Positions 1,246 through 6,464 of a stretch of DNA of 6,464 bases are shown here, piece after piece. The DNA comes from Escherichia coli (GTDB lineage Bacteria > Pseudomonadota > Gammaproteobacteria > Enterobacterales > Enterobacteriaceae), in the NCBI RefSeq assembly GCF_003334255.1, contig NZ_QOWU01000101.1. One strand, written 5' to 3'. The first letter of the stretch is position 1. Every line of letters begins with the position of its first letter. Under the pieces are notes generated by a model. The model saw only the letters and a list, made by a program, of their open reading frames with translations, ran no database searches and was not told the origin of the DNA. The position numbers and the translations under genes are program-made.

Positions 1246-1430
1246 GTTGACCTCATTTCCCCTTAACGCCGGGGGAGCGGAACAAAAACCTGCTGCGCTG
1301 TTATACAAAGTGTTCCCGCCGTCATGTTCATACGCCTCGGGCTGGCTACTTAACCCCTGACCACTGCCGGGTAACTCGAAGTATTGCCCTGCATTCTGTG
1401 GGGCGGGGTGGGTTGGTATGAAAAGAAGGA

Positions 1431-1467
1431 TACCCATAGGTATTTAAAAAGTAAATACCTATGGGTA
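1431..1467. promoter_or_regulatory. Perfect inverted repeat (15-bp arms, 7-bp spacer) downstream of the repressor gene; candidate OL-type operator overlapping an early-left promoter, possibly also a terminator for the repressor transcript
   Basis: TACCCATAGGTATTT (1431-1445) and AAATACCTATGGGTA (1453-1467) are exact reverse complements. On the minus strand, TTTACC-17 bp-TAAATA fits -35/-10 spacing within and around the repeat. The half-site CCATAGGTA recurs at 1926-1934 at the repressor start. Confidence 0.45.
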
Positions 1468-1509
1468 AATTTTTGCGGTGTCTTAACTGGTGACTAGTTG
1501 TTTGGTGAG

Positions 1510-1929
1510 CTATGATGCGTTTTGTGCTTTCTTTTTACGGATTTCTTCGTAGATCATATTGTAATACTGTTTTTTCTCTTCAAGAGTTTTTAATAATTTA
1601 TCCGCTTCACTTTCTGGCAGTTCGTCTAAGAGATCTAAAAAAATACGTTGTCGTGGCGTTAGAACCCTTGTTTCATAACTGGAGGCTGTGTTCGTTGATG
1701 ATGAAACGATACCATCCATCCATCCCCGGGGTAACCCAAAGGACTCTTCGATAATCTCCACCATATCATCAGCGATCCGTTTTTTTCCCTTTTTCCCCTC
1801 TGGGTACAACATTCTTGATACATAAGAAGGCTCGCGCCCGATCTTTCTGGCCACGTTAACCGCTTTACCATCGCATTTCTCATCACGAATTTTGATGAGT
1901 TGCTGTCGTCTAAATTCATATTTGTCCAT
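1510..1929 (-). CDS. Prophage repressor, 139 aa: CI-type HTH N-terminal domain with a DicA-like C-terminal region
   Basis: Complete ORF, divergent from the Cro-like gene. HTH segment AVNVARKIGREPSYVSRMLYPEG. The C-terminal LTPRQRIFLDLLDELPESEADKLL resembles the DicA C-terminus (LSPKELELLELFNALPESEQ as recalled). The ATG at 1929 sits 6 nt after a TATTAT -10 candidate, consistent with a leaderless mRNA. Confidence 0.85.
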   Translation of the reverse strand: MDKYEFRRQQLIKIRDEKCDGKAVNVARKIGREPSYVSRMLYPEGKKGKKRIADDMVEIIEESFGLPRGWMDGIVSSSTNTASSYETRVLTPRQRIFLDLLDELPESEADKLLKTLEEKKQYYNMIYEEIRKKKAQNAS

Positions 1930-2029
1930 AGGTAAATAATAGATGCGATTACCGCAAGGTAAACAACCTGTGGGTATTGACTTTTGTTTACCTGCGGGTA
2001 TTCTTTGCTGTGTTTACTAAGGAGTAGCT
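1930..2029. promoter_or_regulatory. Divergent promoter/operator region between the repressor and Cro-like genes
   Basis: CCGCAAGGTAAACAA (1952-1966) and the reverse complement of 1985-1999 (CCCGCAGGTAAACAA) form an inverted pair. A rightward TTGACT (1977-1982), 16-bp spacer and TATTCT precede the SD TAAGGAG (2018-2024) and ATG 2030. A leftward TATTAT sits immediately upstream of the repressor ATG. Confidence 0.55.
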
Positions 2030-2311
2030 ATGGAAGAATTAAGAATATTTCTCAATTCTCTTTCGTCAGATGAACAGCGTATGTTTGCATGCGAGTGTGA
2101 TACCAGCATCGGTTATCTAAGAAAAGCATTGAGTAAAGGTCAAGTGTTAGGGGCATCGTTATGTGTCCTTATTGAGCGAGCCAGTAATGGTGAAGTTACA
2201 CGTCAGCAACTAAGGCCTTTTGATTGGATGAATATTTGGCCCGAGCTGGAAGATACCAAAACGTTAACACAACCACTTTCTAGGAGCTTGATTCATGAAA
2301 ATCAAGCATGA
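2030..2311 (+). CDS. Cro-like transcriptional regulator, YdaS family, 93 aa
   Basis: SD TAAGGAG 5 nt upstream of the ATG. Divergent from the repressor. The segment ASLCVLIERASNGEVTRQQLRPFDW resembles Rac YdaS as recalled (CPAIERATRGEVLCEELRPDIDW). Confidence 0.8.
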   Translation: MEELRIFLNSLSSDEQRMFACECDTSIGYLRKALSKGQVLGASLCVLIERASNGEVTRQQLRPFDWMNIWPELEDTKTLTQPLSRSLIHENQA

Positions 2312-2720
2312 ACACATCCGCATGGCGATGAATGTCTGGGCGCATCCGGACGGCGAAAAAGTACCGGCTGCGAAAATTACCAAAGCGTATTTCGAGCTGG
2401 GAATGACGTTCCCGGAACTGTACGACGACAGCCATCCGGAAGCCCTGGCTCGTAATACCCAGAAAATTTTCCGTTGGCTGGATAAAGACACCCCTGATGC
2501 TGTTGAAAAAATTCAGGCTCTGTTACCGGCGATCGAAAAGGCAATGCCGCCTCTGCTGGTGGCCCGTATGCGCAGTCACAGCTCTGAATATTACCGTGAG
2601 ATCGTCGAACGGAGGGATCGGCTGGTGAAAGATGTGGATGATTTTGTCGCAGCGGCGATCGCCTGGGGCACCCTGACTAACAGTGGTGGTCAGCCTGGTA
2701 ATGCTGTTGTCGTGCATTGA
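2295..2720 (+). CDS. ydaT: YdaT-family protein (CII-like regulator, also annotated as toxin YdaT), 141 aa
   Basis: Starts MKIKHEHI and ends VVH, with an internal KIQALLPAIEKA motif, as in Rac YdaT from memory. GGAG lies 8 nt upstream. The start overlaps the end of the Cro-like gene by 17 bp. Confidence 0.8.
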   Translation: MKIKHEHIRMAMNVWAHPDGEKVPAAKITKAYFELGMTFPELYDDSHPEALARNTQKIFRWLDKDTPDAVEKIQALLPAIEKAMPPLLVARMRSHSSEYYREIVERRDRLVKDVDDFVAAAIAWGTLTNSGGQPGNAVVVH

Positions 2721-2788
2721 CCAACAATATTCATGCCGGATTTCTTCCGGATGTTCGAGGGTAAAGTTCGGTATCAGATGAGGTGAGT

Positions 2789-3826
2789 ATGGCTAATGCC
2801 TGGCTCAGATTGTGGCATGACATGCCAAATGATCCCAAATGGCGAACCATTGCCAGGGTCTCAGGACAGCCAATCGCAACAGTGATGGCGGTGTATATCC
2901 ACCTTCTGGTGAGTGCGTCACGAAATGTCACGACATGTCACGGCGTGTCACTACGTGGTCACATTGATGTCACGACGGAAGATTTAGCAAGTGCGCTTGA
3001 TGTGACGGAAGACGTAATTGATTCAATTTTGCATGCAATGCAGGGGCGGGTTCTGGATGGTGACCTTATTTCCGGATGGGAAAAACGTCAGGTGCTGAAA
3101 GAGGACAATGGTAACGTTTCGCAAACGGCAAAATCCCCGGCAGAGCGCAAGAGAGCGCAGCGGGAGCGCGAAAAGCTGCGGAAATATGATGCTGATTGTC
3201 ACGATGAGTCACGACGTGTCACGCATCTGTCACGACAAGTCACGACAGATAAAGATACAGATACAGAATTAAACCCCACACATAACGCGCGCATGCGCGA
3301 GAGTGCTCCAACCGGTGAGTCGCATGGTGCGCCGTTGCAGACAGCCGAACCTGAATACCTGGACGGCCTGAGCGAACCGATCGGGAAATTTTCGATGACT
3401 ACTGTCTGGCAGCCGTCGTCGGATTTTCGACAACGGGCAGCAGTGTGGGGTATGGCTCTGCCTGAGCCGGAATTTACACCTGCTGAGCTTGCCGCATTCC
3501 GGGATTACTGGATGGCGGAGGGGAAGGTTTTCACACAGGTTCAGTGGGAGCAGAAATTTGCCCGCCACGTGCAGCACGTCAGGACACAGGTAAAACCAGT
3601 CAGCAAGGGGGTAAGCCATGCAGCATCAGGTGGCACGGCATCACGGGCAGTTCAGGAAATCCGGGCAGCACGCGAACAGTGGGAACGAGACAACGGATTT
3701 ATCAGCAACGGAAATGGCCTGGAAGCTGTGGGAGCTTATGGGGGAGGTGTATTCGAACCGCTGGACTCAGAAGAACGGGGCCGCACCTTCGAAGCTCTGG
3801 ATTGCCCAGATTGGCACGATGACTGA
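2789..3826 (+). CDS. Phage replication initiator (lambda O-like, iteron-binding replisome organiser)
   Basis: Long ORF immediately upstream of the P-like gene. Two arrays of GTCACG iterons are embedded in its coding sequence, as in lambda O/ori. ATG 2789 is preceded by GAGG; the GTG at 2783 is an alternative start. Confidence 0.8.
   Translation: MANAWLRLWHDMPNDPKWRTIARVSGQPIATVMAVYIHLLVSASRNVTTCHGVSLRGHIDVTTEDLASALDVTEDVIDSILHAMQGRVLDGDLISGWEKRQVLKEDNGNVSQTAKSPAERKRAQREREKLRKYDADCHDESRRVTHLSRQVTTDKDTDTELNPTHNARMRESAPTGESHGAPLQTAEPEYLDGLSEPIGKFSMTTVWQPSSDFRQRAAVWGMALPEPEFTPAELAAFRDYWMAEGKVFTQVQWEQKFARHVQHVRTQVKPVSKGVSHAASGGTASRAVQEIRAAREQWERDNGFISNGNGLEAVGAYGGGVFEPLDSEERGRTFEALDCPDWHDD
2915..2978. 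repeat. Iteron array 1: six direct repeats of (t)GTCACGAc at 10-11 bp spacing
   Basis: GTCAC begins at 2917, 2927, 2937, 2947, 2958 and 2969, i.e. one helical turn apart. Confidence 0.7.
3196..3248. repeat. Iteron array 2: five direct repeats of (t)GTCACGAC at 10-11 bp spacing, followed by an AT-rich segment
   Basis: GTCAC begins at 3198, 3208, 3218, 3229 and 3239. The AT-rich stretch AGATAAAGATACAGATACAGAATTAAA (3247-3273) and the 12-bp palindrome CGCGCATGCGCG (3288-3299) follow. Confidence 0.7.
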
Positions 3827-4280
3827 ACAGCAAATCCGGCTGGTCTGCCGTCAGTGCATGGACCGCTGCCGGGCGGGTGAAACGTGGCCCCCAGACCTGG
3901 CTGAGTTTGTTGCACTGATTTCGGAGAGTGGGGCAAATCCATTTGGTCTTACGGTGGATGCAGTGATGGAAGAGTACCGGCGCTGGCGCAATGAATCCTG
4001 GCGATACGACGGGAGTGATAAATACCCGTGGCCACAGCCTGTGCTGTACCACATCTGCCTCGAAATGCGTACCAGAGGGATTGAGCGCCAGATGACGCAG
4101 GGTGAGTTAAAACGACTTGCGGAACGGCAACTGACGAAATGGGCAAAGCATGTTGGTAACGGGATGAGTGTTCCGCCAGTGCGACGACAACTGGAAGGGG
4201 CGAAACACCCGCAAGGGCCAACGCCAATTGAACGGCTGAAACAGGAATACGAACGCCGGAAGGCAGCTGGTTTTATTTGA
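3714..4280 (+). CDS. Replication protein P-like (DnaB helicase loader); start ambiguous
   Basis: The C-terminal two thirds resemble lambda P as recalled (YPW motif; PPDLAEFVAL versus PSPGQFVAW; TMTEQQ versus TTMEQV). The P-like frame is open back to 3618. Candidate starts: ATG 3618 (SD AAGGGGG, giving 220 aa), ATG 3714, ATG 3738, and ATG 3819 (ATGACTGA overlap with the O stop). The stop is at 4278-4280. Confidence 0.75.
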   Translation: MAWKLWELMGEVYSNRWTQKNGAAPSKLWIAQIGTMTEQQIRLVCRQCMDRCRAGETWPPDLAEFVALISESGANPFGLTVDAVMEEYRRWRNESWRYDGSDKYPWPQPVLYHICLEMRTRGIERQMTQGELKRLAERQLTKWAKHVGNGMSVPPVRRQLEGAKHPQGPTPIERLKQEYERRKAAGFI

Positions 4281-4313
4281 GTCTGAGAAACGATTTTGTC
4301 GGAGGAAATTTTA

Positions 4314-5030
4314 ATGGAAACCGTATTTGACGCACTGAAAGCACTGAAAAGAGCCTCTTCACAGGTAGTGGCGGCCCGCCTTGGAATCAGCCGTGAAGAT
4401 GCGGTCAACGAACTGTGGAAACTGAAGCGCCGCGGTGAAGCGGATAACAAGGGTTCGATGTGGTGGCTGATTCAGGCTGGTGAAAGTGAACCGGTGTCAC
4501 CGGTACCGAAAGTGACAGCGCAAATGCTGACTGAGGCGATTGAACAACATGGCCCACAAACGGCGGATGAGCTGGCACTGATGTTCGGGATTACCTCCCG
4601 CCGGGCGAATTCATCGCTGGCCATGGCAATCAGCAAAGGGCGTCTGATTCGCGTGAATCAGGGTGGTAAATTTCGTTACTGCATACCGGGCGCTGATTTA
4701 CCGGCAGAGCCGGAAGCTGCATCCGTAGCGGAAACCGATGGTAAAGCCTTTCCTCAGCCAGCAGGTGTTGCGTTACCAGTACAGGAAATGATGGCACAGG
4801 AAGAAATGAAAACAGAAATCGTGGAAGACATTGTGAGGTTACAGCCATCGATCACCGAAATGAAAGCAGATGACCTGATTCTACCATCGCTGCATGTGGC
4901 TAACCGCGAGCTGCGCCGGGCGAAAAGTGATGTCCAGAAGTGGGAGCGAGTCTGTGCTGCGCTGCGGGAACTGAACAAACACAGGGATATTCTCCGGGAT
5001 ATTACCGCCACCAGAGAGCAGCAGCGGTGA
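4314..5030 (+). CDS. Phage protein with two predicted winged-helix domains and a C-terminal coiled coil, 238 aa; function unknown
   Basis: GGAGGA at 4301-4306 with ATG at 4314; the track's 4296 start is a TTG. Two HTH-like segments ([18 protein letters not shown] and [24 protein letters not shown]). Its stop overlaps the next gene's GTG (GTGA). Confidence 0.7.
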
Positions 5031-5344
5031 GTGGCTGGAAGAAGTGGCGCTGGGCTGAAATCCTGATACTCCGGCAGTGTGCGGGAACGATGAGAGTCGA
5101 AAGCATCGGTTATCTGATTGGTCGTAGTGAGTCAGCCGTCAGGACGAAAGCGCGGGAACTGGGTATCAGCATGATTTTACGGGGTGATTTTCACCCGTCG
5201 GCAAAATATTCACAGCGTGATATTGAGCTGGCGCGGCAACTGCATCAGCGTGGCGTACCCCGACGGGAAATTGCCGAAAAGTTTGGGATGAAGTTGGGCG
5301 CAGTGAATAACTACGTTTATTTCGACAGGAGGGTTCAGGAGTGA
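5027..5344 (+). CDS. Small protein with two HTH-like segments, about 105 aa; function unknown
   Basis: GTG 5027 overlaps the upstream TGA (5028-5030). ATG 5090 is an alternative start giving 84 aa. HTH-like segments [21 protein letters not shown] and [19 protein letters not shown]. Confidence 0.6.
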
Positions 5345-5643
5345 GGGTGAGGATTTATATCGCCGGTCCGATGACGGGATATGAAAATTTCAACCGCGAG
5401 GCGTTTCACAGGGCGGAAGATGCGCTGAAACGGGAAGGGCATACCGTTTTAAACCCGGCAGTACTTCCGGACGGGCTGACTCAACCACACTACATGGATA
5501 TTTGCATGGCAATGCTCCGTTGCGTGGATGCGGTTTACATGCTGAAAGGCTGGCAGCAGTCGGCAGGTGCAAGGGCTGAGCTGGCACTGGCGGAGAAACT
5601 GGGCCATGCGGTGATTTTTCAGGAGGTGGGCAGTGAATATTGA
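5341..5643 (+). CDS. DUF4406 protein, nucleoside 2-deoxyribosyltransferase-like fold, 100 aa
   Basis: N-terminal RIYIAGPMTGY and the later SAGARAELALA glutamate motif are typical of the NDT/Rcl-like fold. AGGAGGG at 5327-5333 precedes GTG 5341, which overlaps the upstream TGA. GTG 5347 is an alternative start. Confidence 0.75.
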   Translation: MRVRIYIAGPMTGYENFNREAFHRAEDALKREGHTVLNPAVLPDGLTQPHYMDICMAMLRCVDAVYMLKGWQQSAGARAELALAEKLGHAVIFQEVGSEY

Positions 5644-5872
5644 CCCGGCGATAACGATTGATATGGCCCTGAACACCGGCCTGGCACTTCTTGGTTATTT
5701 CTACATCATGTTCTGCAGCGGACGATGGCTGTCACTGTTGTTCATGAAAAAATGGAATAAACGCCGTAAGCAGGAGCAACGCCAGAAGGCAATGGATGCA
5801 TTTTCGAAGCCTTCGGAATTGACGGCATGGAACCAGGGGATCCAGCTCGCGCAATCAGCAGAGGGGGTGTAG
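5633..5872 (+). CDS. Small predicted membrane protein (one TM helix followed by a basic stretch), 69-79 aa
   Basis: Hydrophobic segment ALNTGLALLGYFYIMF followed by KKWNKRRKQEQRQK. GTG 5633 overlaps the DUF4406 stop by 11 bp; ATG 5663 is an alternative start. Confidence 0.45.
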   Translation: MNIDPAITIDMALNTGLALLGYFYIMFCSGRWLSLLFMKKWNKRRKQEQRQKAMDAFSKPSELTAWNQGIQLAQSAEGV

Positions 5873-5902
5873 TAATCCTTGTATATCGGAGTGAAGAGAA
5901 AA

Positions 5903-6217
5903 ATGACGATCACAAAACAACGAGTAGAAAAAATCATATATCGCCATGAAATGGGACTGAACAGCGATGTCACTGCCGAAGAGGTTTATGACCTGGCTGT
6001 ACTGGCGCTGAATTTATCAAATATCGCAAACCTGAAGCGATACGAGCTTGATATGGATGGTTGCGACTCGTGCGGTCAGGATTGTGGCGCAGATATGACT
6101 GAAGATCCTGATGGTGATTATGTCCTGTTTGATGACGTGGTTAAGTTGTTTGAATTTGATACAACCACTCAAAAGTTAGAAATCCCGGCAAAGGAGGCAG
6201 CCAGTGAGCAAGATTGA
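5903..6217 (+). CDS. Hypothetical acidic protein with a CDSCGQDC cysteine cluster, 104 aa
   Basis: ATG 5903 lies downstream of GGAG at 5888-5891; the track's 5879 start is a TTG. The C-terminal half is strongly acidic (DMDGCDSCGQDCGADMTEDPDGDYVLFDD). The stop overlaps the next gene's start region. Confidence 0.6.
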   Translation: MTITKQRVEKIIYRHEMGLNSDVTAEEVYDLAVLALNLSNIANLKRYELDMDGCDSCGQDCGADMTEDPDGDYVLFDDVVKLFEFDTTTQKLEIPAKEAASEQD

Positions 6218-6464
6218 CTATCAGGCACTGCGTGAAAAGGCAGAGAAAGCAACTAAAGGAAGCTACATCGTAGGGCATACATCTGTTAACCAGCACGGCA
6301 ATTTAACAGGAGTTTTTGTTTGCCAAAAATGGAAAGGAGAACCCGGTGGCGTGATTGCGGAATGTCATATTAACTGCCTGATTGAAACAGATGCTCAGGC
6401 TTATGCAAACGCTGAATTCATAGCAGAGGCTAACCCGGCTACCGTGCTGGCACTGCTGGATGAA
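6204..6464 (+). CDS. Ead/Ea22-like family protein, 5' partial (runs off the window end)
   Basis: SD AAGGAGG at 6191-6197 with GTG at 6204. The frame is open to the window end, and the translation ends ...ANAEFIAEANPATVLALLDE, the motif I associate with Ead/Ea22-like proteins. Confidence 0.7.
   Translation, partial: MSKIDYQALREKAEKATKGSYIVGHTSVNQHGNLTGVFVCQKWKGEPGGVIAECHINCLIETDAQAYANAEFIAEANPATVLALLDE

Follow-up and report, generated by a model that had tools for sequence, protein, structure and literature searches.

Do five short genes that follow one another on the same strand, directly behind the replication genes of an Escherichia coli prophage, act together as one module, or are they neighbours that are exchanged separately? 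This question is raised by positions 4314-6217 of a 6,464-nucleotide (nt) stretch of contig NZ_QOWU01000101.1 (assembly GCF_003334255.1), which as a whole is called the window below. The five open reading frames (ORFs), here named G1 to G5, correspond in order to a DUF1627/YdaW protein, a small basic protein with a putative helix-turn-helix (HTH), a DUF4406 protein resembling nucleoside deoxyribosyltransferases (NDTs) in fold, a DUF4752 gene present here as a pseudogene, and an acidic protein. An earlier note on this DNA regarded them, in view of their overlapping stop and start codons, as a candidate module for host takeover, anti-defence or superinfection exclusion. After comparison with related loci, we judge it quite probable that the block is instead a run of independently swapped accessory genes in the position held by the ren-nin region of phage lambda, and not one functional unit.

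Co-conservation and gene exchange

The whole block is present at a coverage of at least 80% in 376 of 5426 complete E. coli genomes, O157:H7 included. In the same megablast comparison, G1 was found in 1912 genomes, G3 in 1114 and G5 in 533. A sample of E. coli loci taken down the ranking includes G1 alone, G1 with G2, G1 with G2 and G3, G1 with DUF977 and G3, G3 with G4 and DUF977, and G4 with G5 and Ea22 alone. Among viral loci collected with one gene as the anchor (the best 80 per anchor), all five genes occur in 12 of the 54 G3-anchored and 8 of the 53 G1-anchored loci, which are close relatives. The block is not kept in order across diverged relatives.

The phyletic ranges of the genes are also discordant. 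Searches with tblastn matched 24 phage records for G1 and 26 for G2, compared with 591 for G3, 126 for G4 and 63 for G5. The genes moreover occupy other places in other phages. In PhiR49_2, G4, G5 and Ea22 lie between cI and xis/int, and thus in the early-left arm, where DUF4752 is also found in Shiga toxin (Stx) phages; Shigella phage 75/02 Stx carries the two genes DUF1627 and DUF4752 on different arms, with DUF4752 on the early-left one.

Alignment of the window with alternative arrangements locates the joints. Similarity ends at about position 5005, restarts at 5338, at the ribosome-binding site and start of G3, and is lost once more at 5629, immediately ahead of the G4 start. Because these joints coincide with the boundaries of the G3 gene, they point to independent exchange. 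Strains 5132 and FORC_028, like phage Rac-SA53, have DUF977/LygF where the window has G2. The block would accordingly be a mosaic in which four or more cassettes can be exchanged independently of one another: G1; G2, alternating with DUF977/LygF; G3; and G4-G5, with or without Ead. On counts, loci and joints alike, the five genes are not co-conserved as a block, and the five-gene functional module that had been proposed is not borne out.

Some observations weigh against so loose an association. G1, G2 and G3 occur together in 42 of the 54 G3-anchored close relatives, and DUF1627 and DUF4406 are still linked where the gene between them has been swapped, such that G1 may cooperate functionally with G3 to some extent. 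Restriction of the anchor searches to the best loci makes the co-occurrence samples lean to close relatives. The co-transcription and translational coupling described below are deduced from geometry, and G3 stops short of the C-terminal segment needed to complete the active site of characterised NDT and DNPH1 oligomers, which bears on the function predicted for it.

Position, packing and transcription

A chromosomal prophage of E. coli JE86-ST05 is 100% identical to the window and shows where the block lies. Its RefSeq annotation begins with an integrase, a RecE-like exonuclease, DicB, a repressor, a Cro-like regulator, a YdaT-family protein, a DnaT-like O protein and replication protein P; G1 to G5 and an Ead/Ea22-like gene come next and are followed, further on, by hokD, DUF968, RusA and antiterminator Q. 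An O157 relative has the block at the same place in the rightward operon, behind the replication genes and ahead of Q. The E. coli prophage is lambdoid and Rac-like, the window represents its early-right operon, and 4314-6217 is the positional counterpart of the lambda ren-nin region in the delayed-early rightward operon.

All five ORFs lie on the + strand where the earlier note had placed them, behind a P-like gene, and RefSeq calls the same coding sequences in JE86-ST05. Every one of the five matches a PHROGs family. Relative to an O157:H7 copy of 94.6% identity, in which comparison G1, G2, G3 and G5 are intact, the ratio of nonsynonymous to synonymous polymorphism (pN/pS) is 0.28-0.51, the value for the P-like gene being 0.17. 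Given these ratios and the matches to Pfam and PHROGs, the five ORFs are genuine genes and not chance reading frames.

The overlaps described in the note are likewise as claimed: 4 nt (GTGA) at both G1/G2 and G2/G3, 11 nt at G3/G4, and 14 nt where G5 runs into the start of the Ead/Ea22-like gene. Its statement that the genes follow without gaps does not strictly hold, as 33 nt separate P from G1 and 30 nt separate the frameshifted G4 from G5. Shine-Dalgarno motifs precede the starts of G1, G3, G4, G5 and Ead. None precedes G2, whose GTG start lies within the overlap with the G1 stop codon, and its translation probably depends on coupling. To judge by this arrangement, the five genes are very probably co-translated, by stop/start coupling, within a delayed-early right operon from which they would also be transcribed.

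Such close packing had been taken as the mark of a module. Genes of the lambda ren-nin region overlap by 4, 11, 23 and 34 nt, as compared with 4, 4, 11 and 14 nt in the window. Because the lambda genes share this geometry, tight stop/start coupling is no evidence of a module. The ren-nin region of lambda is itself mosaic and dispensable.

Promoter-like sites over positions 1400-6464 are at chance level, with 5 found and 5.4 expected. A scan for promoters and terminators in 4314-6217 predicted no internal promoter and gave no convincing internal signal, so that a separate transcription unit is unsupported. The single terminator-like site within the block is a weak 5-bp stem at 5715-5732.

Characteristics of the individual genes

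G1 matches Pfam DUF1627 (PF07789) over residues 76-230 with an E value of 8.9e-82, and phrog_630 at 4e-116. The AlphaFold2 (AF2) model includes a winged helix at residues 1-52, with a predicted local distance difference test (pLDDT) score of about 90, and another at 69-123 (about 81-87), and thus agrees with the double winged helix expected earlier. A disordered linker rich in Pro, Ala and Glu (132-191) leads to a long conserved C-terminal helix (190-237). The best Foldseek matches of this model are tandem winged-helix proteins, namely ScpB, the SelB C-terminus, ESCRT-II and AlkX/YcaQ. For the whole protein these matches are generic and have low template-modelling (TM) scores because the orientation of the domains is undefined (predicted TM score, pTM, 0.31), and a single-sequence search of the PDB gave no match. 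We consider it plausible that G1 is a tandem winged-helix factor that would dimerise through its C-terminal helix, bind DNA or protein and be tied to the replication module.

The last of these suggestions draws on gene order. In every locus examined, the DUF1627 gene is directly 3' of the helicase-loader gene, whether the replication module is P-like or DnaC-like. Its position right after the second replication gene was seen in the window, O157, K-12 Rac, Rac-SA53, 75/02 Stx, pPE4, PPompW, 673R7 and strains 5132 and FORC_028. The gene that comes after DUF1627 varies across these loci.

The Rac prophage of K-12 carries ydaW as a truncated DUF1627 pseudogene of 151 amino acids (aa; locus coordinates 3742-4194) in which both winged helices are kept. 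In a retron screen by toxin inhibition or activation conjugation (TIC/TAC), overexpressed K-12 ydaW was among the prophage ‘blockers’ listed for the retron-Sen2 toxin RcaT (bioRxiv 10.1101/2020.06.22.160242). This result concerns the truncated K-12 gene, as a listed screen hit without follow-up, and not full-length G1; it is the sole functional lead for any of the five genes. YdaW has also been listed as a predicted MarR-type transcription factor (PMC9308461). Homology of G1 to lambda Ren was considered and rejected (hhalign probability 0.8%, BLASTP E value 1.7), which leaves a generic winged-helix likeness and the shared position.

G2 matches phrog_323 (‘transcriptional regulator, D5-like’) at 2e-25 and has an isoelectric point (pI) of 10.3. 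Of the two HTH domains that had been proposed, the C-terminal one agrees with Pfam matches to HTH_7 and sigma70_r4 at residues 60-98, although these are weak, and the N-terminal one is plausible. Matches to TPR and Pins proteins in a single-sequence PDB search were judged spurious, since they contained no passing stretch. We suggest that G2 is a small DNA-binding regulator carried on an exchangeable cassette.

G3 matches Pfam DUF4406 at 2.6e-36, its match to the NDT family PF05014 being not significant (E value 0.055). At 50% identity, the very large DUF4406 family of phages and bacteria divides into 12,366 clusters. Among 42 diverse homologs, the invariant residues are G9, F22, P39, P43, S74, G76, E80 and A84, the last four of which constitute the motif S74-x-G76-x3-E80-x3-A84. 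No match was obtained in a single-sequence PDB search; a profile of the 42-homolog alignment matches the NDT of T. brucei (2A0K, E value 2e-4) and the cytidine monophosphate (CMP) N-glycosidases MilB, BcmB and BlsM. E80 aligns with the catalytic Glu of these enzymes, found within ‘GTAFE’ in 2A0K and 6QAI and within ‘GTHxE’ in 4JEN, 5VTO and 4JEL. S74, six residues before the catalytic Glu, aligns with a Ser in CMP N-glycosidases and with an Asp in true NDTs, and the presence of Ser therefore favours a substrate of the nucleoside monophosphate (NMP) type over transferase chemistry.

The AF2 model of G3 (pLDDT 93.6) leads to the same families and agrees with the NDT-like assignment made earlier. 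Foldseek retrieved NDTs, DNPH1, MilB and the DUF1937 structure 1T1J, with query-normalised TM scores (TMq) of 0.70-0.77 for 2A0K, 8PQR, 1T1J, 9DA6 and 4JEL. G3 ends at residue 100, compared with 130-160 aa for the matched targets. From motif and model, we infer that G3 is an N-glycosidase acting on a nucleoside 5'-monophosphate. It would be of the NDT/DNPH1/MilB type, most likely hydrolysing or binding a (deoxy)nucleoside 5'-monophosphate, and would in this way adjust the pools of nucleotides at an early stage of lytic growth.

DUF4406 homologs with 61-65% identity to G3 reside in Shimwellia, Klebsiella and Rouxiella, among unrelated neighbours and with no DUF1627 nearby. In the prophages of Shimwellia (locus L151, 4465-5294) and Klebsiella (locus L152, 4411-5291), the DUF4406 gene lies in the early-left arm and overlaps the stop codon of a DNA methyltransferase gene by 4 nt; the enzymes concerned are Dam (PF05869) and MT-A70 (PF05063). 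Such neighbours might be a sign that DUF4406 is connected with the modification of DNA or nucleotides. In actinophages, DUF4406 is fused to, or annotated within, genes for deoxycytidine monophosphate (dCMP) deaminase and MazG-like pyrophosphatase, contexts that are consistent with a role in nucleotide metabolism. The domain also occurs in far longer proteins (200-358 aa).

G4 had been described as a small membrane protein. The reading frame at 5633-5872 exists; its 79-aa product is a truncated form of a DUF4752 protein, generated by a 1-nt deletion in a run of T residues. Alignment to the O157 copy shows four T residues at 5801-5804, where intact copies have five. Addition of one T yields an ORF of 105 aa extending to 5949, 47 nt into G5, and RefSeq flags the gene at the identical locus as ‘frameshifted’ (a pseudogene). 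Fetched loci with a full-length match to G4 comprise 14 intact copies and 7 with the four-T allele. As 7 of 21 copies carry it, this allele is a lineage marker and not the sequencing error of one genome. The intact protein matches Pfam DUF4752 at 8.8e-39 and has one hydrophobic helix (residues ~11-29) followed by a basic tail, which would suit a single-pass inner-membrane protein. One gene call of 169 aa in a Logan assembly joins DUF4406 and DUF4752 domains, and an indel in the 11-nt overlap probably accounts for this apparent fusion.

RefSeq annotates the Ead/Ea22-like gene after G5 as truncated in the identical genome. With G4 inactive and Ead truncated, the prophage is decaying in the region of the block. 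Past the block in that genome (10925-12895 of the fetched locus), the truncated Ead/Ea22-like gene is accompanied by a frameshifted small ORF and a split DUF551 gene.

G5 matches phrog_3126 at 4e-64. Its acidity, which had been noted, is evident from a pI of 4.1 and 24 Asp and Glu residues, whereas the Cys cluster ascribed to it is upheld only in part: C54 and C61 never vary, and 3 of 6 homologs carry Phe in place of C57. A zinc finger, which some Stx phage annotations assign to genes next to this one, was considered and rejected because four Cys or His ligands would be needed, and Pfam gave no significant zinc-finger match for G5. Homologs with 60-86% identity are located near terminase genes in the siphoviruses Vi II-E1, C1, Akira and swi2, which are called virulent here in that no integrase or repressor is annotated in the stretches examined. 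In temperate phages as well as in these apparently virulent siphoviruses, G5 often adjoins an Ead/Eae/Ea22-like gene, in either order. It might act as an acidic factor that binds other proteins and moves together with Ead/Eae-like genes. Over its first ~36-47 residues, G5 weakly matches phrog_3323 and phrog_60, both of them families without an assigned function, and the latter is also weakly matched by the Ead/Ea22 fragment.

The remark that none of the five genes has an established function agrees with our searches. NCBIfam returned no match above its curated cutoffs, four of the proteins having none at all and G2 having two below threshold. PADLOC (PADLOC-DB v2) gave nothing below an E value of 0.1 for the five proteins except a match of G1 to SWIM_XIII (0.008) that we judged spurious, and so the recommended check with a defence predictor yielded no credible match. 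The literature on DUF1627, DUF4406 and DUF4752, searched also by Pfam accession and for lygF, is essentially empty, and no functional study was found.

Alternative interpretations

We regard it as unlikely that G1, the HTH gene and G3 make up a three-gene unit in which the tandem winged-helix protein, along with a small DNA-binding one, regulates or works with a minimal NDT-fold nucleotide N-glycosidase, with a role in remodelling nucleotide pools or in neutralising NDT-type immune effectors such as retron RcaT. Although the order DUF1627-X-DUF4406 is kept with two different middle genes, and G1 is upstream in 47 of the 54 G3-anchored close relatives, G1 occurs without G3 in 22 of the 53 G1-anchored loci and also in 75/02 Stx, pPE4, PPompW and 673R7. 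G3 homologs in three other genera have no DUF1627 nearby, DUF4406 is far more widespread than DUF1627 among phage records, and the joints fall at the G3 boundaries. RcaT-type retron effectors are NDT-like, and the blocking of RcaT by truncated ydaW would suit such a unit; ydaW is, however, only a listed hit, and the PADLOC retron-effector models do not match G3. Taken together, the comparisons speak against G1 and G3 as an obligate pair.

A more specific proposal built on the same facts strikes us as quite unlikely. Here, DUF1627/YdaW proteins would be antagonists of NDT-fold immune effectors such as RcaT and would at the same time regulate the neighbouring DUF4406 NMP N-glycosidase, making G1-(HTH)-G3 a unit for both counter-defence and control of the nucleotide pool.

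It is very unlikely that the block is functionless debris of a cryptic prophage, with ORFs that persist through recent decay. The frameshift in G4, the truncation of Ead and the further damaged genes just downstream are what such a history would leave, and K-12 Rac keeps a truncated DUF1627 gene only. Yet G1, G2, G3 and G5 are intact and have pN/pS ratios of 0.28-0.51, and homologs are present in the inducible or isolated phages Rac-SA53, PPompW, 673R7 and PhiR49_2 and in virulent phages too. Because the genes are intact, under purifying selection and represented in such phages, the gene families are functional even if this copy erodes.

That all five genes constitute one coherent cassette for anti-defence, host takeover or superinfection exclusion is highly improbable: what speaks for it is their tight same-strand packing, their position among phage accessory genes, the shared lack of an established function and the intact block in 376 E. 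coli genomes, whereas the block is not co-conserved, its components recur in other operons or in virulent phages, G4 is a pseudogene here and in a third of the fetched copies, PADLOC offers no credible match and the geometry is generic for lambda nin genes.

Features of the window

Table 1. Coordinates of the five genes and their immediate neighbours in the window
Feature	Position	Strand	Basis
Replication protein P-like gene (context only)	3819..4280	+	RefSeq ‘replication protein P’ at identical locus
G1, DUF1627/YdaW, 238 aa	4314..5030	+	Pfam, phrog_630, AF2
G2, basic protein with putative HTH, 105 aa	5027..5344	+	phrog_323, weak Pfam HTH
G3, DUF4406, 100 aa	5341..5643	+	Pfam, AF2, Foldseek
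G4, DUF4752, pseudogene here	5633..5949 (79-aa frameshifted ORF ends 5872)	+	Pfam, repair of the frameshift, RefSeq
G5, acidic protein, 104 aa	5903..6217	+	phrog_3126, composition
Ead/Ea22-like gene, N-terminal part	6204..6464, runs off window	+	PHROGs phrog_6389/368/250; RefSeq incomplete

An Rfam scan of the whole window returned DicF as its sole match, and none within the block. This antisense small RNA (sRNA; RF00039, 70.1 bits, E value 2e-14) is at 54-105 on the - strand, upstream of dicB in the leftward operon of the prophage, which is Rac/Qin-like in this respect. Pas sRNAs have been described in the literature within 10 kb of DUF1627 genes; as candidates inside the window they were dropped because the scan matched DicF alone.

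A homolog of the YdaT-family ‘toxin’ is encoded at 2295-2720 on the + strand, between the Cro-like and O-like genes, an arrangement like that of ydaS/ydaT in Rac. A perfect palindrome with a 16-bp stem at 1431-1467, flanked by T-runs on both sides, is a terminator-like hairpin on either strand. It is located between the repressor gene (1510-1929, - strand) and the next leftward ORF (1093-1437, - strand).

Implications

The block is best seen as a typical mosaic segment of a very common E. coli prophage family, and we advise against regarding it as a cassette for defence or anti-defence. DUF1627 can serve as a positional marker for the site after the helicase-loader gene in Rac-like phages. Residual interest attaches to DUF1627 as a possible anti-retron factor and to DUF4406 as a putative minimal NMP N-glycosidase, and a biochemical assignment of the latter family would annotate thousands of phage genes.

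Comparison with known systems

Two of the gene products can be set beside known proteins. G3 shares with NDT, DNPH1 (Rcl) and MilB/BcmB the fold, an N-terminal Y-I-A-G-P strand-loop and the catalytic Glu within x-G-x3-E-x3-A. It differs in having ~100 aa rather than 130-160, in lacking a C-terminal extension and in belonging to a separate Pfam family; at S74 it is like MilB and BcmB and unlike true NDTs. One of four phage-derived PF05014 NDTs tested was found to be active, and nucleoside-pool editing in 2,6-diaminopurine phages was proposed (bioRxiv 10.1101/2025.10.22.683976). Those enzymes and G3 are alike as phage-encoded NDT-fold proteins for which a reshaping of nucleotide or nucleoside pools has been suggested, but the Pfam families and host ranges differ, and the RefSeq annotation of the identical prophage gives no sign of base-modification genes. 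Compared with K-12 ydaW, G1 is the full-length member of the same family at the same site after the replication genes, whereas the K-12 form retains the two winged helices only and has a YdaU/YdaV (DnaC-like) module, not an O/P-like one, before it.

As a whole, the block invites comparison with two regions of lambdoid phages. Like the lambda segment P-ren-ninB...ninI-Q, it lies in the rightward operon, behind the helicase-loader gene and ahead of Q. It has no sequence homology to ren or any nin gene, and RusA is found downstream rather than NinG/Rap; PHROGs named no Nin family for the block genes, and a match to the Ren-like phrog_142 is weak (6e-5 over 50 aa). The second is the early-left ‘ea’/exo-xis region of lambdoid and P22-like phages, with ea22, ead and eaa, where G4, G5 and an Ead/Ea22-like gene are found together in PhiR49_2. 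In the prophage of the window, this same trio sits in the early-right operon, after the replication genes.

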